A DNA stretch of 64,000 bases from Octopus vulgaris (Eukaryota): positions 23,870,001 through 23,934,000 of the forward strand of contig OX597832.1 of the NCBI GenBank assembly GCA_951406725.2, read 5' to 3'. Shown piece after piece: positions 6,468-58,100 of the stretch. The notes below the pieces were generated by a model. That model did no database searches, had not been told where the DNA came from, and saw only the letters and a program-made list of their open reading frames with translations. The translations under genes were made by a program, and so were the position numbers. The stretch's first letter is position 1, and every line of letters begins with the position of its first letter.

Positions 6468-6741
6468 GGCATGAGAATTGTAGAGAAATGTAGAAGTGTG
6501 GACAACCATGCATCATCCAGATATGTGACTAAATTGATAGGAAATTAAACAACTTGGCGATCATGTTGGTGATTGGGTTATAACTGCTAAAGAAAAGGAA
6601 TGATTTTGAAAAACAAAAACAACAAAAAATCCTAGTAAATTTTGAAGAAGAATGGAAAATGGCAATCTAAGTTCAAAGTAGTTCACAGTTAACAGTTTTA
6701 CTGAGGTGGAAGGCAACTGGTGATTAAATTGGAAACCCGTA

Positions 6742-7032
6742 TTGATTTGTCATTCAGTAAACCCTAAGGTCCACCGATCATTCCTGACTAGTTTATTGGA
6801 AATCCAATACTCCAATAAAAAATTTGAGGTTACAAAATCTTTATTTGAAGACATGCTCAAGAAACTGGTTTCTGTACCAATGACAAAAGATGCTGCCAAG
6901 TCTATAGATTTAGATTCTAAAATTCTATTGATGTTGGATAATTCTCCAACTGCACCTGAAAACTTCTCTCAAAATCTTATAGTTGTATTTTTACCAATCA
7001 TGACAAAAAACTGGCACTGTCAGATGCAATAA
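6742..7032 (+). pseudogene. Decayed pogo/Tigger DDE_1 transposase fragment
   Basis: SNKK..VT..LFED, KILLMLDNSP and VVFLP motifs. Confidence 0.7.
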
Positions 7033-8329
7033 CAGGAGTTCCAGTTGGCCCAATGAATGGAACAGCTGCTTGTAAAATTTATAAGTGGCTCAGCACTCTA
7101 CAGACGCATATACCTAGGGGCTAAACACAGAGAGGACAAACAGATTAAGTCGATTATATCAACCCCAGTGCATAACTGGTACTTTTTTATTTGACCCCGA
7201 AAGGATGAAAGGTAAAGTCGACCTCGGTGGAATTTGAACCCAGAACGTAGTGGCAGACAAAATACTGCTAAGCATTTCGCCTGGCGTGCTAACATTTCTG
7301 CCAGCTCGCCGCCAGACGCATATACCCTTAATGTAGTTCTAAGGGAGATTCTACGTTATACAATGTGATAAGGCTGGCTCTTAATTACACGTACAACTCA
7401 TTTTTGCCAGCTGAGTGGACTGGAGCAATGTGAAATAAAGTTCCTTGCTCAAGGACAAAAAAGCATCATCAAGAATTGAACTCGTGACCTTGTGATCACG
7501 AGCCAAATACACTAACCACATGCCTTCAAACATGACATCACTGTTGCAGCCGACGAATTAGCACCCAGTCTACACTGTAAAGTGGTTGGTGTTCAGAAAG
7601 GCATCCAGCTGTAAAAACCTTGCCAAAACTAATCTCACCTGTGCTAGTGCCACGTAAAAAGCACTAAGTGAATGGTTGGTGTTAGGAAGGACATCCAGCT
7701 GTAAAAATCCTGCCAAAACAGTCACAGAAGTCTGGTGCAGGCTTCGGCCTGGCCGGCTTTTGAGGTACCGCCCCACCCATGCCAGCATGAAACACAGACA
7801 TTAAATGATGATGATGAAAGCAACATTCCAGGCCCTATTACATAAGCAAAACTTTTGCCCAGATTATTGAAAAAGCAATAAGAGGAAAAACAATTCACTT
7901 TACAGACTATTGGAAGAAGCATAACAAAAAAAATGAACCAGAAAATATCCATGACACATGACACATGACATTCTATATATATATCACGTGATCACGTGAC
8001 CAACCAGGCTATCAGATGTTGTTACACATCGCTGGTCACAATGCGCTTTGCATTGTTTTAGCCTTCAAATGATGCCACCCCGCTGGTTAAGCGAGCAGGC
8101 CTACAGAAGAAAGAGAGAAAGTTGTGGTGAAAGAGTACAGCAGGGATCACCACCACCCCCTACCGGAGCCTCGTGGAGTTTTTTAGGTGTTTCCACTCAA
8201 TAATCACTCACAACGACCGGTATGGGTATCGAAACTGCAATCCTACGACCATGAGTCCACTGCCCTAACCACTGGGCTATTGCGCCTCCATATATATATA
8301 TATATATAATATATATATATATAGAGAGA

Positions 8330-8525
8330 GTTTACGAAAAAACAAAATACGAAGACAGGTGGTGTACAATACAAACAGATGTAATAGTATAATGCTCAGG
8401 AATAGAAAAAGTCTTTTACGTTTTGAGCCTACGCTCTTCTACAGAAAGGGACACAGAAAAAACAAGGCGAGAAAAAAGGAGAGAAAAAAAATGTGTAGTG
8501 GCTAATGGTCTATAATGGTGACCCT
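8330..8525 (-). mobile_element. Penelope-like terminal-repeat element with decayed hammerhead
   Basis: Minus strand ctttCTGtAGAaGAGCgtagGCTCaAAACGTAaaag; (TA)n both sides. Confidence 0.45.
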
Positions 8526-9862
8526 AATATATATATATTTTCTTTTTTAATATTGTATTAGATAAAAAAAGAAAAAACTCAATTCAGCCGAAACAATGTG
8601 AGAAATGCAAGATGGGGGTATGTTGTTCTGATATCTGTCAACTTATTCCCCGTGCCCTGACAAAAGGTGTCATTACCATGAAATATTGAAATACAAGGTA
8701 AAAGTTCATCTATTGGTCTGTTTCCAGTTTTGTATTACACCTTGTATTTCATTTTTCTTCGTTTCAGTTACATCACGGGGTTTTATCAGAGAGAGAGACA
8801 GACAGACAGAGTTGTGTGTGCATGCGTGCGTGCATACACACACACTCACAATTAGATTGCCACTGATACACTCAGGTACATTTGACAGGTACTGTTTCTC
8901 ATCCCTGAAAACAAATCGAGTCCTCATCAAGCAGGCTTAGAGCAATTGCCAGTTTAGTAAAAAGCTCAATCATGAACAGGCTGGACTGGTCTTAGATTGT
9001 TACCAGTAGCAGGTCCTTCGTGGATACAGGTACATAGTGTGTATGTACCTGTATACATATACACACACATATACATATACATATACACACACACACACAC
9101 GCGTATGTGAGTGTGTGTGCTGCTGTTGTTGTAACCAACTCCAGTTTAACCAGTTTTCTCATTGATCAGTATCATAAGTACAATGCCAACCAAAAAAGTT
9201 TCTTGGTACAGAATCGGACAAATTTAGACTCTTGCATATACGGAGTGCGTGAGTGAGTGAAACGACGTTCAGAGCTTTCTTATTTCTCCCATCTTGGTGA
9301 AGTTTTCTTTTTTTTTCAATCTAGCCTCTTGTAGCTATTTATAGTTCCACATCGCAACCAGTTTCCCCATTTTGGAACTCCACACAGCTGGTTCACCAAT
9401 GAAACTACCAAACAACACATCCCTGCCAATGCATATAAATAGTTAAACACAGAACATCATGTACGGACACTGAACAGCCAGCTATAAAAATACTCGGCGA
9501 GTTACACAAACCTATTACATATTCATCTATTTATAGGTTGTCTTGATCATTTCCGTTCACTCACTTGTTCAGCATCCTCAACAGGTCTTCAAAGTCTACT
9601 TTTCCATGCCTGCATGAGTCAGACAAAGTTTATTCAGAAGGAAAATTTCCGATATTTCGATGCCCATTTCCAAGCCATATTTACCCATGGTCAAACGTTT
9701 ACACAGACTATTGGAAATGTATGACACTGGTTGTATGACTGTAACACTCACAACTATCACTTCTAATGATCCGCAGGGATGCAGAATATCTACCTTAAAA
9801 CACACACACACAAACCTGATAAGATTCTGAATGGTGTGCATTTACAAGGTACTGGTCAACCT

Positions 9863-10245
9863 GGTGGAGGCGCAATGGCCCAGTGGTTAGGGCAGCGGAC
9901 TCGCGGTCATAGGATCGCGGTTTCGATTCCCAGACCGGGCGTTGTGAGTGTTTATTGAGCGAAAACACCTAAAGCTCCACGAGGCTCCGGCAGGGGATGG
10001 TGGTGATCCCTGCTGCACTCTTTCACCACGACTTTCTCTCACTCTTTCTTCCTGTTTCTGTTGTACCTGTACTTCAAAGGGCCGGCCTTGTCACTCTCTG
10101 TGTCACGCTGAATATCCCCGAGAACTACGTTAAGGGTACACGTGTCTGTGGAGTGCTCAGCCACTTACACGTTAATTTCACAAGCAGGCTGTTCTGTTGA
10201 TTCGGTTCAACCGGAACCCTCGTCGTAACCGACGGAGTGCTTCCA
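9863..10245 (+). mobile_element. tRNA-derived SINE family C, full length, 13-bp TSD tactggtcaacct. Other copies 29771-30157(+, TSD tacagttggtcatt), 51939-52321(-); same head at 2917-3201(-), 3890-4048(+), 7985-8290(-), 32840-33140(+)
   Basis: Head ggcgcaatggcccagtggttagggcagcggac...gtttcgattccc; TSDs read directly. Confidence 0.9.
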
Positions 10246-33738: not shown

Positions 33739-35021
33739 TAAAACCGTCAACAAAGTACTGGTTGCTACCTTAGCTACTTAAATGCCTTTTATTAAAAAGA
33801 GGAGGGTAAAAAGAAAATAAACTCCCTGAGGTATTTTGTTTTTGTATTTCGATTCCTTTTATCAACTACTTTTGAGTAAACCCTATCGCAAACTTTAAAA
33901 CCTTAATAATTTAAGTGCCTTCCAGGAGGTCAGTACAGAGAGAGAGCACCTCATAGAAAAATATATAATTATTTGTATGTTTGTTTTTATTATTACTGGC
34001 CTTGTGCCTTGAAATAGAAACCAAAATTAGATCCCCCCCCACCCTTATTTTTCGTTCCACCGAGGCGGGGAGCTGGCAGAATCGTTAGCACGCCGGGCAA
34101 AATGCTTAGCGGCATTTCGTACGTTTTTATGTTCTGAGTTCGAATTCCGGCCGAGGTCGACTTTGCCTTTCGTCCTTTTTGGTGTCAATAAAATAAGCAC
34201 CAGTCGGGCACTGGAGTCGATATTATCACCTTAACCTCTCTCCATAATTTCAGACCTTGTACCTGTGGTGGAAAGGTACATTATTATTATTATTATTATT
34301 GCGGTGATCAACGGCCCCCATTTCTTTTTAAATTTTTTATAAGACTCTAGCTGCGATATCGTGATTTTTCATGCTTTCCTTAACATGTCACAGGTGAAGA
34401 CGAAGTGAAATGTCATGAAGCGAGACAGCAAACCTGTTCGTTCTACTAATGGGCTCGGCGGGAGATTATTGCTCGTTCTGTGATGTGCGTCATTGAATGA
34501 GATATACATATGCATGCCTATGTATTATTCATTCACTGAAACAAATGTGTATAAACAGCAGGATTTCGATTATAAATTCTGTCTCAGGATATAGGCACCA
34601 CTCTTATACATAAGTCTTAAAGCTAATCAAAAGGGGTTGACTTTGATTTTTGATTTTTTTCGTGTTCTTTCCTTTCTCTTTTATATTTATGACAAGAAAA
34701 ATCTGTTGGCGAAATGATTAAGAGATAACAGAATATCGATTTTGGCACCTGTCCTTTTAAGTTAAAAGGAAGACTGCTATTTTCTGTTAAGGTAAAAAAA
34801 AAAAGAATGCAAGAAGTATTCCACTTTGTTGGGGAGTACTGACTAGATATTTTTATTACTAGGCACTGATCCAATTTTGGCAGGTTTACAGTGCAATCGC
34901 AGCCCTAAATAAGCCCTGATCATACAAACCTATAATCAATGGTATATCAGGAATAATCGTTCTGTCTTTATTTATAACAGAGGTTGTTGATCTACATGTC
35001 CTTCGTTTTTTATTCTTTTTC

Positions 35022-35553
35022 TTGGCATCACTCAGCAAGACTTTTGTTAGCCGCTCTCCAGCCATCTATTTAAAACTGTATACAGCTATGGTACGACCAC
35101 ACTTGGAATTCGCATCATCAGTTTGGAATCCCTATCTTGCTCAGAACATTGACCTCCTGGAATCTGTCCAGAGACGTGCAACCAAACGCATACCCTCCAT
35201 CAGACACCTACCATATTCTGAGCGCCTTGTTTCCCTGGGCATGGATTCACTGAAGCTCCGGCGTCTGGCGACGGACTTGGTAAACACCCACAAGGTTATC
35301 AACCACCTCACCAACAACAACACTGAACACCTTTTTGATCTCCATGTGTCTAACACACGTGGACATGCCTACAAAGTCAGAAAACAGCACAGCTCCCATG
35401 ACTTTCGGAAACATTTTTTCACGCTCAGAGTTGCTGAAGCGTGGAATAAACTGCCTGCGTTTAAGGCCCTCATGCTTCCCGAAATCCGTCGAAACTACAC
35501 CTGATTATATATACACTTTAGATGAGTTGTAGTGCACCTGAGCACTGTACACA

Positions 35554-35600: not shown

Positions 35601-36712
35601 GATAGTTTGAGTTGTTTCTAGCAAGTCATATGAGGGAGGAATTCTGTTTTAAGTACGGCATAACTTTTTATTTTTTAGGAATTTTCAGAAATTTTTTGCG
35701 AATGTCGGGCATAAAGCTGAATGCCGCTCAAATAGCCGCGAAAAAGCTCGGTGGTGAGTAGGTTTGATATTTAGGCATAACTACAGTTTAGTGCCCCACC
35801 AACCCATTTGACTTTGTTTTTCCATAACTTATTAAAATGGGCATTTAAAAAATGTCGTAGCACACGTTTCCGTCGATTTCCTCCGTCGATTGTCGATTTC
35901 CGTAAAAAATGTAAACACTGAATCGGCCATACATACATACATACATACATACATACATACACACATACATACACACACACATACATACACACACACACAT
36001 ACATAGATACATACACACACACACATACATGCAGACATACATATACACTGAATCGGCCATACATACATACACACACACATACTTACACACACACACATAC
36101 ATACACACACACATACATAGATACATACACACACACACATACATATACACATACACCGAGTAAAAAATTTCAGTTATCTCTCTCTTTCACACATTACTCT
36201 CTCTGTCTCTTCGCACACACTAACAGAAGCACTTCACTTACACAACATACTGTCTGTCTCCCACACCCCATCAAACACACACACGGGGACTTCAAAAAGA
36301 AATTCCCTCGTCATAAAATCGCTTCCTCTTAGTCTCTTTCGCTCTCATTACTTCAAATATTCCCGCAAAGCCATATGTAAAAAAATAAAAGTTTTTTACG
36401 GAAATCGACGGAAACGTGTGCTACGACAAACGAAACTTTGCCAAAAAAATTTTCTTTTTAAACATTTTCATAGGGTCGAGAATTTCAGATCATTTTCTCC
36501 TTTCCACTGACTCTGTCACCATCAATTTCCGCGATTTTGGCATTTTTGAAGTACTTTTTCGGATCTATATATTTGAAATATTAACCAACCACATGGTTCC
36601 GGGTTCAGTCCCACTGCGCGGCATCTTGGGCAAGTGCCTTCTGCTATAGCCCCGGGCCGACCAATGCCTTGTGAGTGGATTTGGTAGACGGAAACTGAAA
36701 GAAGCCTGTCGT

Positions 36713-38775: not shown

Positions 38776-39040
38776 AGTAAGAATAATCCCATTGAAATCT
38801 CACAGCTACGAGATAATCCATGATTAATTGAAAACCATGTGAATAAATATAAGCCTTACCTTTGACAGAATCATGTGAATTGCTAAAGGGTTAACCATTT
38901 CTTCCTCGTGATGGCAATGTTTTATTTTAGCTTTATTCTTCATTTCTTGTTTCTTTTTTTATATATATATATATATATTTTATATTTTTTCATTTAAAAA
39001 ATATGATCAAGAAGTAGTTAGAAGAGAGACAAGCTTCACC

Positions 39041-46618: not shown

Positions 46619-46747
46619 ACAAATAGTACTTTAGAGTCTCTAAACATGAATGGTAACAAGATTGGAAGAAACGGCGTGTTGATGTTTGCTCGGGCTCTTC
46701 AGTTCAATATTGGCTTAAAGGAATTGAATGTTGGCCATACCGACATG
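46619..46747 (+). CDS. LRRC34: LRRC34 exon 4 (TNSTLESLNMNGNKIGRNGVLMFARALQFNIGLKELNVGHTDM)
   Basis: tttcag / ATG|gtaagt; phase 0-0; LRR pattern; not in ORF track. Confidence 0.93.
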
Positions 46748-51410: not shown

Positions 51411-51457
51411 GTGCATGTGTGTGCATACGACTGTTTATATAATTTTCTTCTCTGTAG

Positions 51458-51587
51458 TTTGATTATAGTATCCAACAACATTGGAGTGAATGGAATTATA
51501 ACAATTATAGAGGTGTTGATAAACGTAAACAAGAGCCTGACATCTTTGTTCATATGGGGAAATGACGTGCAGCCCTCTGCTGGAGAA
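51458..51587 (+). CDS. LRRC34: LRRC34 exon 8 (LIIVSNNIGVNGIITIIEVLINVNKSLTSLFIWGNDVQPSAGE)
   Basis: ctgtag / GAA|gtaagt; VSNNI and IWGN motifs as recalled for LRRC34. Confidence 0.94.
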
Positions 51588-52485
51588 GTAAGTATGCATA
51601 CTAACATATATATACATACTTATATACACACATAATGAATGCATACAAGCATATATACATACATACATCCATACCAGAGGTGGACTGAGAGTATTAAGGA
51701 CTCTTGGGTATAACTGTAAAGTGTGGGCCCCTCAGAGCTCTGGGTCCTTGAGCAGTGTCCAATTGACCGACAGCTCAGTTCACCCCTGATCCATACATAC
51801 ATCCTTACACACATAAATACATACATACATGCACACATTTATATATTAAGCCTTACACACATGCATCCATATATAAACGCATACACGTATTCATATACAA
51901 AGTCTGAAATACATACATGCATACACATATTCATATATGGAAGCACTCCGTCGGTTACAACGACGAAGGTTCCGGTTGATCCGAATCAATGGAACAGCCT
52001 GCTCGTGAAATTAACGTGTAAGTGGCTGAGCACTCCACAGACACGTGTACCCTTAACGTAGTTCTCGGGGATATTCAGCGTGACACAGAGAGTGACAAGG
52101 CCGGCCCTTTGAAATACAGGTACAACAGAAACAGGAAGTAAGAGTGAGAGAAAGTTGTGGTGAAAGAGTACAGCAGGGATCACCACCATCCCCTGCCGGA
52201 GCCTCGTGGAGCTTTTAGGTGTTTTCGCTCAATAAACACTCACAACGCCCGGTCTGGGAATCGAAACCGTGATCCTATGACTGCAAGTTCGCTGCCCTAA
52301 CCACTGATCCATTGCGCCTCCACATTCATATATAAAGTTTTACATGCATGCATGCATACATAAATCCTTGCATATTTACATGCATGCATATGTAAATATT
52401 TAAATACAAACATGCATACATAGACACGTGCCTATGTATCTACGTTTGGAATACACATGCTTAAAAAATAATGAGACACTCACTA

Positions 52486-53170
52486 TCTATCTATCTATCC
52501 GCTCTGTCGAAGTCGACTCTCGGTTACCCATTGGATCAGTGTCCTCCAGTCAGTTCTATCCTGGGCCGCTTCTTTCAGATTGGCTATGTCCATTCTGGTA
52601 TCACTCTTGATGGTGTCAAGCCAGTGGGTTCTTGGTCAGCTTCTTCCTCTCTTGCCACTGACCATTCTGAGCATGATGTCCTTCTCCAGGGATTTTCTTC
52701 GCATAATATGATCGAAATATGCCTATCTACGCTTGGTGATCTTAGCTTCTAGCGACATTTTCGGCCTGATCTGCTTAAGAACTTCTCCATTGGTCGACAT
52801 CTTCCTCTCTTGCCACTGACCATTCCGTATATATATATATATATATATCCGCTCAGTCGAAGTCGACTCTCGGTTACTCGTTCGATCAGTGTCCTCCAGT
52901 CAGTTCTATCCTGGGCTGCTTCTTTCAGATTGGCTATGTCCATTCTGGTATCACTCTTGATGGTGTCAAGCCAGTGGGTTCTTGGTCGGCTTCTTCCTCT
53001 CTTGCCACTGACCATTCTGAGCATGATGTCCTTCTCCAGGGATTTTCTTCGCATAATATGACCAAAATATGCCAATCTACGCTTGGTGATCTTAGCTTCT
53101 AGCGACATTTTCGGCCTGATCTGCTTAAGAACTTCTTCATTGGTGAGCCTCGCTGTCCATGAGACACTCA
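52486..53170 (-). mobile_element. RTE (BovB-like) LINE 3' end, tandemly duplicated
   Basis: SWT...TNEEVL, RL.YFGHIMRR.SLEK.IM, GKRGR.RP...W.D.I, AQDR..WR; two near-identical copies. Confidence 0.9.
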
Positions 53171-53254
53171 AATGTGTATTAAATTCATATGCAAACCTAC
53201 AATGTGAGAGTAAGTTCACATATGCACTAACACAGACACACAAACACATACATA

Positions 53255-53921
53255 TATGAGGAATGGTGAAATAGTCCCTGGCTTTGAATGAAAGAAAATA
53301 CAGGAAGATCAGTTAACCCTTTAGCATTCAAACCGGCCATATCTGGCCAAAATATTTAACCTGTTTTATATTGAGACTGACCAGATCTCGCCTCTCACCT
53401 CAGCCCTACCATGTCATTCTAAAACTAAAAAATCACATCACTGAAATCTCTAAACTACAAGATAATGCATGATTAATTCAAACCATTTTAAATAAACAAA
53501 CATCACATTTGACAGAATAATCTGAACTCTAAAGGGTTAATTGTGATTTTATTCCACATATTTCCTTCTCAGATTCACACACTTATTGCAGCAATTCTTC
53601 AGTTTTTCTAAACCTGGAAAAGAAGTCAGAAATTTGGGCCTCAAACCAAACCTTTTGCGATACCCTTAATGCCAGTAATTTTTCTGCACCCCTTATATAT
53701 ATAGGAGTAGGGACTGAAAAGTTCCTGGCTTTGTATAAAAGAAAATACAGACGGATCAGTTAATTATGATTTTATTCAACATATTTCCCTCTCAGATTCA
53801 CACACTTATTGCAGCGGTCCTTCAGGTTTTCTAAGCCCTGTAAAAGAACTCGGTAAGTTCAGCCTCCAACCAGGTCTTTCATGAGACCCTTAAAGCCAGG
53901 AACTTTTCAGCACCCCCTCAT
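53255..53921. mobile_element. Two adjacent Tc1/mariner-like MITE copies, the first interrupted by a TTAA MITE
   Basis: TIR-like ctgaaaagttcctggcttt / aaagccaggaacttttcag, TA flanks; duplicated body. Confidence 0.6.
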
Positions 53922-54151
53922 ACATACGCAGACAATAACCTACTCATATATATCTACAAACCCCTAGAACAGTCTTGACTTAACAATAAAAAAAAGAACT
54001 AATTATTTTGTTATAACTGGCTCCAATAATTCTGCAAATGAAAAAAAAAAAAACTTAAATAAATCCCAAATAAGGAAAAATATATAATATCATAATTATA
54101 TTTGGTAATATTGTGAATAAAGGGTTCAACGTTGGTTCTATGTCAGTGTGT

Positions 54152-54440
54152 GTATATAAGAATTTTTTGCATAATGAGATAAAAAAAAACCAGAGCTGTG
54201 TAGCTATTAGAGCATTTATAAGATAGAAGGTCTTACGGCTGTTTCTAGGATATTTTTAATTATATCCCTTCATCAGAGACGGTGTGAGAGGATAGTTAAG
54301 TCATAGTTAATCCTCTCACACCGTCTCTGATGAAGGGATATAATTAATTATCCTAGAAACAGCTTCTATCTATAAATGCTCTAATAGCTACACAGCCTTG
54401 GGATTTTTATCTTATTACACAAAAATTCTTATATATATAT
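54152..54440. mobile_element. ~290-bp imperfect palindrome: inverted pair of Penelope-like terminal repeats
   Basis: Arms such as atatcccttcatcagagacggtgtgagagga / tcctctcacaccgtctctgatgaagggatat; hammerhead core in both arms; TA-rich flanks. Confidence 0.65.
54230..54280 (-). ncRNA. Minimal type I hammerhead ribozyme motif (Penelope-like)
   Basis: Minus strand reads gtct-CTGATGA-a-gggata-loop-tatcct-a-GAAAC-agcc-GTA-agac: stem I gtct/agac, stem II, 2-bp stem III, GUA cleavage triplet. Confidence 0.65.
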
Positions 54441-54589
54441 ATGTATGTATATATAAATATGGGCTGTAGTAGAAGATATTTGCCCAAGATGCCACACAGT
54501 AGAACTATGTGGTTGGGAAGCAACCTTCTTACCACACAGCCGTGCCTGCACCTGATATCTTATCTTATTTTTTTTCGTCTTTCTTTAAG

Positions 54590-54712
54590 GCAGTTCACAG
54601 ACTTTTGGAAGAAAAGCGTCTTTCAGAAGATTGCATTGATGTTAAACCGTATAACATTGAGGGGATTTATCACCTTGGTCGGCAATTTCTTTTTCGCCAG
54701 AAGCAGCAGTAA
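54590..54712 (+). CDS. LRRC34: LRRC34 terminal exon copy 9a, truncated duplicate (AVHRLLEEKRLSEDCIDVKPYNIEGIYHLGRQFLFRQKQQ*); 385-aa isoform if used
   Basis: Intact ttctttaag acceptor, phase 0; first 35 codons differ from 9b at two residues, then repeat-derived sequence and stop. Confidence 0.6.
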   Translation, partial: AVHRLLEEKRLSEDCIDVKPYNIEGIYHLGRQFLFRQKQQ

Positions 54713-54944
54713 GACCTTCTATCTATAAATGCTGTGATATCTACACAGCCTTGGTTTTATTTTATCTTATTTCACAAAAAATTCTTATATATATATATAT
54801 GGGCTGTAGTAGAAGACATTTGCCCGAGGTGCGACTCACGGTGGAACTGAACTCTGAACCACGTGGTTGGGAAGCAAGCTTCTTACCACACAGCCATGCT
54901 CTGCACCTGATACCTTTTTTTTTTTTTATTCGTCTTTCTTTAAG

Positions 54945-55121
54945 GCAGTTCACAGACTTTTGGAAGCAAAGCGTCTTTCAGAAGATTGCATTGATGTTAA
55001 ACCGTATAACATTGAGGGGATTTTTCACCTTGGTCGGCAATTTCTTTTTACTCCTCGCCAATTCGGTAGAGCACCAAGTTATGGAAACTGTCTAACAACA
55101 TCTGCCATTCTGAAGCAATAA
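54945..55121 (+). CDS. LRRC34: LRRC34 terminal exon copy 9b, full length (AVHRLLEAKRLSEDCIDVKPYNIEGIFHLGRQFLFTPRQFGRAPSYGNCLTTSAILKQ*); 403-aa isoform
   Basis: ttctttaag acceptor; DVKPY...G and PSYG correspond to recalled DVEPF...G and STYG; AATAAA at 55186-55191. Confidence 0.85.
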   Translation, partial: AVHRLLEAKRLSEDCIDVKPYNIEGIFHLGRQFLFTPRQFGRAPSYGNCLTTSAILKQ

Positions 55122-58100
55122 GCGAGAGAATATGAAGTTATGTAAAAACCGAAACTTTCAGCAAGTCTTTGTATTCTTAGAGAGAAATAAAAAATTTAAA
55201 TACATATCGTTTGTCATTTACTTGCTTCAGTGTACTGGACTGTGGCCATCCTGGGGCACCACCTTGAAGGGTTTTTGTCAAACAAATCGATCCCCAGGAC
55301 TTATTTTTAAAGTCCGGTACTTATGCCAAACTTTTAAGCTATGGGGCCGTAAACAAACCAATAGCAGTTATCAACCAATTGTGGGGACAAAGCATCAGAA
55401 TGCAGGACCTGGTGCCAGTCTTGCTTCTCCTCAGTTCAAAGATTTCAGTAAAGTTGACTCCAACTTCATGCAAGCACAAAAGCATGCTGGGAAAATACTG
55501 CTCCGCTAAATGGAAGCCTTTTTCTGTCATTGCGGTTTTCTGGCACAAAACAGAGAGAGATCCTTGATGTCATCATCATCATCATCATTTAACATCCGCT
55601 TTCCATGCTAGCATGGGTTGGACGATTTGACTGAGGACTGGCGAACCAGATGGCTGCACCAGACTTCAATCTGATCTGGCAGGGTTTCTACAGCTGGATG
55701 TCCTTCCTAACCCCAACCACTCCGAGAGTGCAGTGGGTTCTTTTTGCGTGCCACCGGCACGAGAGCCAGTGAGGCGGTACTGGCAACAGCCACGCCCAAA
55801 TGGTGCTTTTTATGTGCCACCTGCACAGGAGCCAGTCCAGCGGCACTGGCAACGACCTCGCTCGAATGTTTTCTCACGTGCCACCGGCACAAGTGCTAGT
55901 AAGGCGACGCAGGTAACGATCATGCTCGAATGGTGTTTTTAACGTGCCATCAGCTTGGAGGCCAGCTTTTTGCTCTGGCCCTGATCTCACTCATATGGTA
56001 CTCTTAGCACTCCACTGGCACGGATGCCAATCATCAAATTTTATTTCGCACCAAAGGAAACACATAGTAAATGATCCTCAAGCACTCATGCTAAGTCCTC
56101 AACTTATTCCATTTACTAAAAGGTTGACAAGGCACCTGCAGGCCTCAAGAGACACATTCTTATTTCTTTATTGCCCACGAGGGGCTAAACAAAGGGATTA
56201 AGTCAATTAGATCAACCCCAGTGCATAAATGGTACTTAATTTATGGACCCTGAAAGGATGAAAAGCAAAGTCAACCTCGGCGGAATTTGAACTCAGAACA
56301 TAATGGCAGACAAAATACCTATTTCTTACTACCGACAAGGGACTAAACACAGAGGGGACAAACAAGGACAAAGGGATTAAGTCAATTAGATCAACCCCAG
56401 TGCGTAACTGGTACTTAATTTATCAACCCCGAAAGGATGAAAAGCAAAGTCAACCTCGGCGGAATTTGAACTCAGAACCTAACGGCAGACAAAATATGGC
56501 TAAGCATTTTCGTCTGGCATGCTAACATTTCTGCCAGCTCACCACCTCAAGAGACACATTCGTGTCCATAGAACATGATTACTGCTTTATTTTCCTGAAC
56601 CCTCATTTGTCGTTCATGATGATGATGATCATCATATATATATATATCCAAAAGCTGTTCCACTTGATTTCTTGTTTTTGTTTATCAATAATTCTTGCAA
56701 AACTTTTTCATGAATTCCCATGTTTTTATCCAAAACGGAGATGATCACCAATTCCTCCAAGCCAACCACAGAGTAACGGAGGTTGATGTTTATAATCGTT
56801 TGACATCTGTCTCCCATGCTGACTTGGGTTGGATGGCTTGCGAGAAGCTGGCAAGCCAGAGAATCATTAGCACGCCAGGTGAAATGCGTAGCCGTATTTC
56901 GTCTGCCGTTACGTTCTGAGTTCAAATTCCGCCGAGGTCGACTTTGCTTTTCATCCTTTCGGGGTCGATAAATTAAGTACCAGTTACACACTGGGGTCTA
57001 TGTAATCGACTTAATCCATTTGTCTGTCCTTGTTTGTGTTTGGCCCCTTGTGGGTAGTAAAGAAATGGGCTTGAGAGGATCTGGCAAGCCAGAGAATCAC
57101 GCCATGCTCCATTTATCTGCTTCGGCACGATTTCATCAGCTGGATACCCTTCCTAACATCAACCACTTTACAGAGTGTACTGGGAGCTTTTGACATGACA
57201 CTGACAACAGCAGGGTCACTAAGTAACTTGTGAAACGCAGACCTTTCAGCTGGGAGAGGGACCGCATACATGATGCACGGAAGAAATTTTAAAAGGAATG
57301 AACAAATATCAAAACAATTTATTGGTTTATATTATTTTATTTTTCCATTTCCAGCATTCCACCAGGACATGGATGAGGTTCTGTATTTCTTTTATTCTTT
57401 TTTTTTTATAATACAAAATTTAAAAAACTGCATATTATATAACTGGAGAATGTATTTTTTATTTTTTTATTTTACAATCATGTCTTTCACCACAGCCAAT
57501 AACTCAACCAGGAGTGGAGCTGTTTTTAACCAATATTCAAAAAATAAAAGATCAGCTGTACAGAATATAAACGCTAATAAAGTTTTATTTTACATTTTTA
57601 CAAGGAAAACAAATATTAAAAAAAAAATGTGGAGAAGAAACATCTTTTCTTTCTTGTACGTATTTCAGTCACTGGACTGTGGCCATACTGGAGCACTGCC
57701 TTGAAGGGTGCAATCAAACGAATCAACCATTCAACAATTTTTTGTTTTTTTAAGTTTGGTATTTATTCTATCAAATTGCTTCTGCCAAATTGCTAAGTTA
57801 CAAGGACATAAACAAACCAACACTGGCTGTTAAATGATGGGGAGAAAAAAAAAACACACACACACACATATATATTTATACATCATGGGCTTCAACACGG
57901 CAGTAACTTCCGCCTGCCAAATTCAATCACAAAGCTCCGGTCGGCTCAGGGTTATAGTGGAAGACACCTACCCAAAGTGCCACGCAGTGGGACTGAACCC
58001 GAAACCATGTAGCTCAGAAGCAAGCTCCCTAACCACACAGCCATACCCGCGCCTATATATTTATACATGGGCTTCAACACAGTTTCTGTCTCCCAAATTC

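Follow-up and report, generated by a model that had tools for sequence, protein, structure and literature searches.

How a gene comes to carry two ends in tandem, and which of them its transcripts use, is the question raised by the C-terminal exons of an LRRC34-like gene of Octopus vulgaris, which lie in the 64,000-nucleotide stretch of DNA analysed here (the window, whose first letter is position 1). In other animals LRRC34 is a gene of cilia and the sperm tail. The peptide of the downstream copy of the last exon (9b) matches the O. sinensis LRRC34-like isoform X2, and the best sequence and fold matches of the octopus protein are LRRC34 orthologues (LRRC34 / RSP15), with bovine LRRC34 recovered by sequence search at E 2.4e-70 and the best solved relatives being bovine sperm LRRC34 and human airway LRRC34. 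LRRC34 has been argued to be the radial spoke protein RSP15 (PMC10721216), a role that can be inferred for the octopus protein from its orthologues, and in O. sinensis the gene is testis-biased in expression (table values 101.76 vs 0.16; PMC11202624). Eight exons of 345 codons, separated by GT-AG introns, precede the two copies of the last exon, 9a and 9b (Table 1), and the phase-0 end of exon 8, with its GT donor, serves both acceptors, which are thus both in frame. At the other end of the gene, 35702-35752 and 39014-39040 code for the 26 residues by which O. sinensis isoform X1 is extended at its N-terminus; the extra upstream coding exon (35702-35752) is omitted by isoform X2 and by the O. 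vulgaris model, and counting it would shift the exon numbers by one. The O. vulgaris protein CAI9736625.1 also lacks six residues at 46730-46747, a gap that fits a second, in-frame GT donor of exon 4 lying 18 nt before the main one; this may reflect a real minor form or a model error.

Table 1. Positions in the window of the features discussed, with the evidence for each.
Feature	Position	Strand	Description and evidence
Exon 8 of LRRC34	51458..51587	+	tblastn, exon model; spliced contigs in runs X1 and X16
Left arm L, candidate docking site	54153..54293		inverted repeat of 54310-54435 and 54699-54791
9-nt bulge, candidate toehold	54228..54236	+	ViennaRNA nascent fold; unpaired in L:A, complementary to 54709-54717 of arm B
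Right arm A	54310..54435		38-bp perfect inner stem; distal part from 54355 starts unit A
Duplication unit A	54355..54698	+	arm fragment, TA run, SINE-like fragment, acceptor, exon copy 9a; alignments
SINE-like fragment, copy A	54453..54552	+	blastn, alignment
3' splice site of 9a	54574..54589	+	sequence; joint 51587->54590 GT..AG in runs X1 and X16
Exon copy 9a	54590..54712	+	40 codons and stop; last codons and TAA inside arm B
Duplication unit B	54699..55059	+	runs on into original exon end; alignments
Arm B, candidate second selector	54699..54791		copy of distal right arm (~90 nt), downstream of 9a
SINE-like fragment, copy B	54793..54907	+	blastn, alignment
3' splice site of 9b	54929..54944	+	intact; unspliced contigs 54871-54997 (X16), 54870-55023 (X3)
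Exon copy 9b	54945..55121	+	58 codons and stop; ancestral APSYG tail kept
AATAAA, predicted shared poly(A) signal	55186..55191	+	motif scan; sole one in 54590-56600

In an alignment of the two copies of the duplicated unit, 54355-54699 corresponds to 54699-55060 and the exon starts are separated by 355 nt, a length of repeat that is beyond chance and that agrees with the original prediction of a unit of about 355 bp occurring twice. Both acceptors are intact, with AG at 54588-89 and 54943-44, the last 16 intronic nucleotides are identical, as are the first 22 nt of 9a and 9b, and the U-tract is longer at the 9b acceptor than at the 9a acceptor. Both acceptors read AAG (54587-54589, 54942-54944), while the other acceptors of the gene are all CAG or TAG (7/7). 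As had been noticed from the sequence, the exon copies differ at an E/A site (54612/54967) and a Y/F site (54669/55024); these are the only two substitutions in 110 aligned columns and both are replacements, against 21 of 219 columns in the flanks of the copies (9.6%; Fisher P=0.010), and 9a also lacks two codons (a 6-nt in-frame gap), after which matching resumes. Such low exon divergence would fit gene conversion as well as selection acting on the two copies. The copying took in the 5' two thirds of the last exon and no more: the coding part is indeed duplicated, but reaches codon 38-39, not codon 35 as first thought. The final residues and the stop of 9a derive from a copied hairpin arm, and the 40-residue 9a peptide ends, as predicted, in QFLFRQKQQ and a stop, without the PSYG tail that 9b has as APSYG.

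Both unit copies bear their own derived changes relative to the repeat consensus, as in an old duplication. The fragment that we take to be a SINE has 7 more copies in the window at 79-85% identity. Local tandem duplications are frequent here (13 in the window), and a second one of 350 bp, younger and with ~96% identity, lies in intron 8 at 52484-53144, where a minus-strand frame presumably corresponds to the end of a LINE reverse transcriptase. Two further open frames, at 34920-35504 and 6724-7032, we take to be fragments of a LINE reverse transcriptase and of a DDE transposase, respectively.

The duplication is real, being present in two assemblies, since the RefSeq annotation of O. sinensis has both ends. 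Its isoform X1 (XP_029648415.1) has exactly the 9a C-terminus, including the residues made by the breakpoint, while isoform X2 (XP_036367240.1) ends as 9b with 3 of 58 residues different; the 9b C-terminus of the window is found exactly in O. vulgaris CAI9736625.1, and the protein cluster of isoform X2 has 4 members. Both C-termini are thus already in the public automatic annotation of O. sinensis, and we found no published account of their origin in the open-licence literature, supplements aside.

To see which acceptor is spliced, contigs (not reads) of four of 24 listed runs, X1, X16, X3 and X19, were compared over 51430-55400, and word shares were used for these four only. None of the listed runs is recorded as RNA and their tissues are not given. 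X1, X16 and X3, three of the 22 runs other than X19 and X20, were treated as RNA-like, because spliced contigs occur in X1 and X16 and a unique intron bin (51696-51828) is uncovered in each of the three (depth 0); X19, with depth 5.0 on the same bin and read-through of the exon 8 donor, behaves as DNA. The joint 51587->54590, flanked by GT..AG, was found in two of the three RNA-like runs, X1 and X16, which come from two organisms and two studies. The contigs carrying it extend 79 (X1) and 53 (X16) letters on the 9a side, with no other letter at the diagnostic position 54612, while run X3 has no assembled exon 8 junction. No joint from exon 8 to 9b (51587->54945) occurs among the 15 of 104 joints listed, a count to be read with the fact that contigs drop rare paths, and use of 9b is annotated in two proteins (XP_036367240.1 and CAI9736625.1). 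Of the two C-termini originally predicted as alternatives, then, the 9a one is really spliced to exon 8, and the splicing of 9b rests on these two protein models.

Contigs of X1, X16 and X3 (3/3) run across the duplication breakpoint, the 9a stop and a donor-like site at 54709, and in two of the three (X16 and X3) the 9b acceptor is passed unspliced (Table 1), with another contig behind the read-through at 54639-54885. Unitigs (k=31) were simulated under six transcript models and set against the contig ends of X16. The observed ends 54642, 54639, 54997 and 54994 are those of simulated read-through from 9a alone; X16 has neither the breaks expected if both junctions were assembled (54611, 54974) nor those expected from DNA (54603, 54958). 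The word share in X16 is 0.61, where read-through would give 0.66 and 9b alone, with its alleles, 0.20. This topology, which comes from a single deep run and two of low depth, suggests that 9a is likely the main form, while contigs lose rare paths and yield no ratios, leaving room for a minor 9b form. We also considered 9a as a 119-nt cassette joined from the donor-like site at 54709 to 9b, which is ruled out by the contigs of X1, X16 and X3 that continue through 54709.

A motif scan found no AATAAA or ATTAAA between the copies (54712-54945), where the variant TATAAA occurs at 54724. As no canonical poly(A) signal separates the copies and 9a transcripts run unspliced through 9b, the two belong to a single terminal exon as alternative 3' splice sites, with a single predicted poly(A) site, and the downstream acceptor stays inside the mature exon. 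The original description as alternative last exons, to which an own poly(A) signal for each terminal exon belongs, is not supported, in view of the read-through in X16 and X3, though partial early ends are possible. The 9a mRNA has a 3' UTR of ~475 nt before the poly(A) signal, with 9b inside it, and the 9b mRNA one of 65 nt. The expectation that 9a escapes EJC-type NMD stands, with no junction seen past the 9a stop and the donor at 54709 read through in 3/3 runs. At the far end of the exon, one X16 contig (contig 15) has 31 letters past 55165 that are unlike the window, where X1 and X19 continue, which may be sequence particular to that species, the poly(A) end of the transcript or a further junction downstream; in the last case the 9a stop, but not the 9b stop, could trigger NMD. 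A silent A>G at 55094 in X16 may be an allele or an A-to-I edit.

The sequence originally called a repeat arm is part of the duplicated unit, as stated, and the present analysis adds its upstream pairing partner: intron 8 contains a foldback element of 283 bp with arms of ~140 bp, and the repeat arm is the distal part of the right one. The element is short and non-coding, with long terminal inverted repeats and TA runs at both ends, from which a target duplication is indistinguishable; this is the anatomy of MITE and foldback elements, and on that anatomy we take it to be MITE-like. No further copy was found in the 64-kb window, and all six Rfam miRNA precursor matches were far below the gathering score (best MIR821, 67.6 vs 249 bits). 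In X19 the summed contig depth over the element is 7,000-10,000 vs 7-12 for unique contigs, which is not a copy number. The duplication placed a copy of the distal right arm, arm B, behind 9a, where it provides the stop and then the 3' UTR of the 9a mRNA (covered in X1, X16 and X3). Arm B is 85-86% complementary to the left arm L, and 9 nt present in arm B are absent from arm A, a deletion that leaves the bulge in L.

By computation, L (54153-54246) can pair with either A (54355-54435) or B (54699-54791), the two pairings being mutually exclusive, and this is, as computed only, a docking site and selector layout with one element, a selector upstream of each copy and exclusive pairings. Pairing of L with A is predicted to leave 9a open, while pairing with B would loop it out. 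Nascent RNA up to 54620 is predicted by ViennaRNA to form the local L:A hairpin with 120 pairs. Over 54140-54960 the minimum-energy fold contains 76 L:B pairs and encloses 9a, at -319.7 kcal/mol vs -310.5 when L:B is barred, a gap of ~9 kcal/mol (16.8 with the 54734 allele of X16 and X3, with unchanged direction at 18 C), values that are approximate over 800 nt. When arm B was shuffled, L:B pairs numbered 0 in 12/12 trials.

The break between the shared and the copy-specific part of the protein falls just past the last folded element. An AlphaFold model of the 9b form from 48 sequences has a mean pLDDT of 87.8, its last strands at 357-362 and 365-370 and pLDDT<50 over residues 377-397, and 9a retains all through residue 374. 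The octopus protein resembles LRRC34/RSP15 (PDB 9fqr_MA, 8j07_w, 7ju4_l) in sequence and fold, differing in that 9b lacks the aromatic cluster before PxYG and 9a the whole tail. Structural matches include bovine sperm LRRC34 (9fqr_MA; Z 43.1, rmsd 1.5, 360 aligned), a Leishmania chain (9y6s_8b; Z 39.6) and a Chlamydomonas spoke chain (7ju4_l; Z 32.0). In the three best axonemal matches the alignment ends at model residues 370, 371 and 373, and the axonemal chain lengths of 375 (range 41-415), 366 (1-366) and 327 (5-331) suggest that the tail is absent or unmodelled in the solved axonemal orthologues. Since the lost tail is predicted to be unstructured and the break lies just past the folded part, the truncation in 9a is likely tolerated. 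Among 46 homologues, 6 end ahead of the tail motif, 4 of them in one clade and some of them perhaps incomplete predictions. The tail-less homologues ending where 9a ends (P0186, P0187, P0189, P0143, P0124 and P0134) possibly represent independent losses. Pfam has no domain in the C-terminal part. Among the rows having the column, the motif is kept at P in 37/41, Y in 30/40 and G in 33/40, and this conservation makes a role of the tail likely for most animals; in octopus, 9b is already without the aromatic residues before PxYG.

The duplication was originally called young, which does not fit its divergence. The window differs from X16 at 7 of 706 nt and from X19 at 16 of 751 nt, while the flanks of the two copies differ from each other ~10 times more than the species do (about 1%), thus the duplication is older than the split of O. 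vulgaris and O. sinensis, dated at 2.5 My (PMC10700109). Its age may be put roughly at 10-25 My, a loose figure as repeats can be converted. An insertion specific to copy B is also present in X19, thus the duplication predates the split of that organism as well. The word share in X19 is 0.39, with 0.37 expected from the 9b contig alone and 0.42-0.65 with 9a too, which hints that the X19 organism has a single copy, an uncovered 9a being no proof of loss. One X19 contig (contig 23, 54872-55263) runs unbroken across the 56-nt block common to 9a and 9b, with 9b alleles. In a tree of 29 of the 48 aligned rows the sister sequence is P0018 (support 100/99); its E/A residue is N and its Y/F residue is Y, as in 9a, but its branch is long and we do not rely on it for the ancestral residues. 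The O. bimaculoides protein, which ends at residue 251, gives no information on the C-terminus.

The explanation that we favour, and hold to be reasonably probable, is that a duplicated, truncated 9a precedes 9b, is spliced from exon 8 and reads through 9b, and is likely the main form. The 355-bp tandem duplication set a truncated copy of the last exon ahead of the original 9b; exon 8 is joined to 9a and the transcript continues through 9b as 3' UTR, steps that are established here along with the competing complementarity. Transcription reaches the 9a acceptor before that of 9b, and 9a is predicted to stay open beside the local hairpin, which makes a first-come choice, and with it a predominance of 9a, likely. 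The 9a product would fold normally without the tail, and 9b is probably retained as a minor form, possibly used when arm B invades through the bulge. Such a kinetic argument is needed because the equilibrium fold favours 9a looped out and predicts 9b, the opposite of the contigs, which show 9a used. The observed 9a junction agrees with the kinetic winner predicted by the duplication model of Ivanov and Pervouchine 2018, in which competing RNA structures originate by duplication (PMC6071210).

A structure-controlled switch, in which L is the docking site, arms A and B are the selectors, the bulge lets B invade and L:B pairing directs splicing to 9b, with a possibly regulated ratio of 9a to 9b, is an alternative that we hold to be unlikely. 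The arrangement is that of Fig. 3a of PMC6071210, including the kinetic edge for the first arm, and the better energy of the L:B fold, its dependence on the sequence of arm B in the shuffling trials, the 9-nt toehold and the single difference in arm B between the window and X16 all accord with it. On the other hand, copying one arm of an inverted repeat automatically yields complementarity and requires no function; the joint from exon 8 to 9b is unseen among those listed, arm B has drifted to 85% complementarity, fold energies over such a length are approximate, and the species at hand for compensatory changes are two close ones. That the pairing truly sets the ratio of 9a to 9b would be compatible with 9a as the major form, and from the predicted folds we regard it as doubtful. 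It would be equally doubtful that the transposon arms became a docking site and selector switch in one step, with an arm that gave the stop, a later 9-nt deletion that left the toehold and a strand exchange that sets the tail content.

Somewhat less likely still is the reading that 9b is now 3' UTR only, with the 9b protein models derived from homology-guided prediction or from ambiguous mapping, given the identical first 22 nt of the copies, and gene conversion keeping the copies alike. The joints listed and a graph topology that is that of read-through alone accord with it, as does the absence of any silent difference between the exon copies beside flanks of 9.6% divergence, which conversion would give. 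Compared with O. sinensis, no residue differs in exons 1-8 (0/345, isoform X2) or 9a (0/40) while 3 of 58 differ in 9b (P=0.002 pooled), and in 9b of X16 the same three replacements as in O. sinensis occur together with one silent change. However, when 9b is set against 9a by itself the difference reaches significance neither in residues (3/58 vs 0/40, P=0.27) nor in nucleotides (4/177 vs 0/123, P=0.15), and against the X19 organism 9b coding sequence differs at 1 of 177 nt and the adjoining non-coding sequence at 10 of 215 (P=0.015), thus 9b is not plainly dead. These two results weaken a decay of 9b (3/58 vs 0/385 residues), which we kept as a rival only. The frame and acceptor of 9b are moreover intact in the window, X16 and X19, two independent annotations chose 9b, and contigs lose rare paths.

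We think it quite improbable that 9a and 9b are two alternative last exons with their own 3' ends and comparable or tissue-specific use. While both acceptors are intact, both ends are annotated in O. sinensis, a TATAAA variant is present at 54724, and contig depth in X16 drops toward the 3' end (368.6, 253.4, 181.4, 117.1), which could include early ends but, with a single value for each contig, cannot be used to rank the parts, the contigs pass 54724 and cross the 9b acceptor, there is no canonical signal between the copies, and the X16 contig ends disagree with the simulated model of own poly(A) sites. Finally, an assembly artefact or two haplotypes laid in tandem, which the original prediction had already argued against and which would accord with the frequency of local tandem repeats and with the contig of X19, a DNA-like run of another organism, which passes 9b without a break as expected of a single copy, is refuted, and carries practically no probability, given breakpoint-spanning contigs in 3/3 RNA-like runs from two organisms, the junction-made residues in O. 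sinensis isoform X1 and the derived changes proper to each copy.

The locus has counterparts among known systems. Tandem exon duplication is known to give alternative splicing, duplicated terminal exons included (PMC9013439). Like the cases described there, the octopus copies are adjacent tandem homologous exons with their own intact, in-frame acceptors and one upstream donor, exclusive by position at the gene end, and 9a is present in mature RNA; unlike them, the octopus copy is partial, ends at a stop provided by a repeat arm, is without its own poly(A) signal and is apparently the main form. As in the model of PMC6071210, a stem-loop a/a' in the upstream intron has had a' duplicated with the exon and the new a'' would loop out the first copy, with the docking site upstream. 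That model concerns internal exons and short conserved elements, while the octopus locus has a terminal exon and a 140-bp transposon-like inverted repeat of which only the distal 90 nt of an arm were copied, and any function is putative. In the 3' variable regions of Drosophila PGRP-LC, CG42235 and Pip, competing pairings lie beside duplicated 3' cassettes (PMC6191721), and the selector of D. bipectinata CG42235, duplicated with a 3' cassette, is a precedent for arm B. The Drosophila pairings have been proven by mutation to control choice and are, in the accessible text of PMC6191721, not described as transposon arms, whereas the octopus pairing is predicted. Closest is O. sinensis itself, whose isoforms X1 and X2 have the same two C-termini in automatic models. 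In the open-licence literature, supplements aside, we found nothing on this duplication, on the apparent takeover by a truncated copy or on transposon arms as docking site and selector.

The finding is real and of a known kind, with both ends already annotated in O. sinensis. Whether competing RNA structures arise as a by-product of tandem duplication is an open question (PMC9013439), and this locus, with the layout that the model predicts in 800 bases, a kinetic winner in agreement with the observed junction, a datable origin and a mutable toehold, is a compact test case. If the switch is true, the locus would offer a natural and datable example of splicing by competing structures that came into being as a by-product of duplication, the truncated exon having overtaken the original; if the pairing is inert, it would be an ordinary tolerated duplication in a repeat-rich genome. 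Here a partial exon copy has apparently taken over the C-terminus of a conserved gene, which bears on the end chosen by annotation: the O. vulgaris model uses 9b, while the expressed contigs use 9a.
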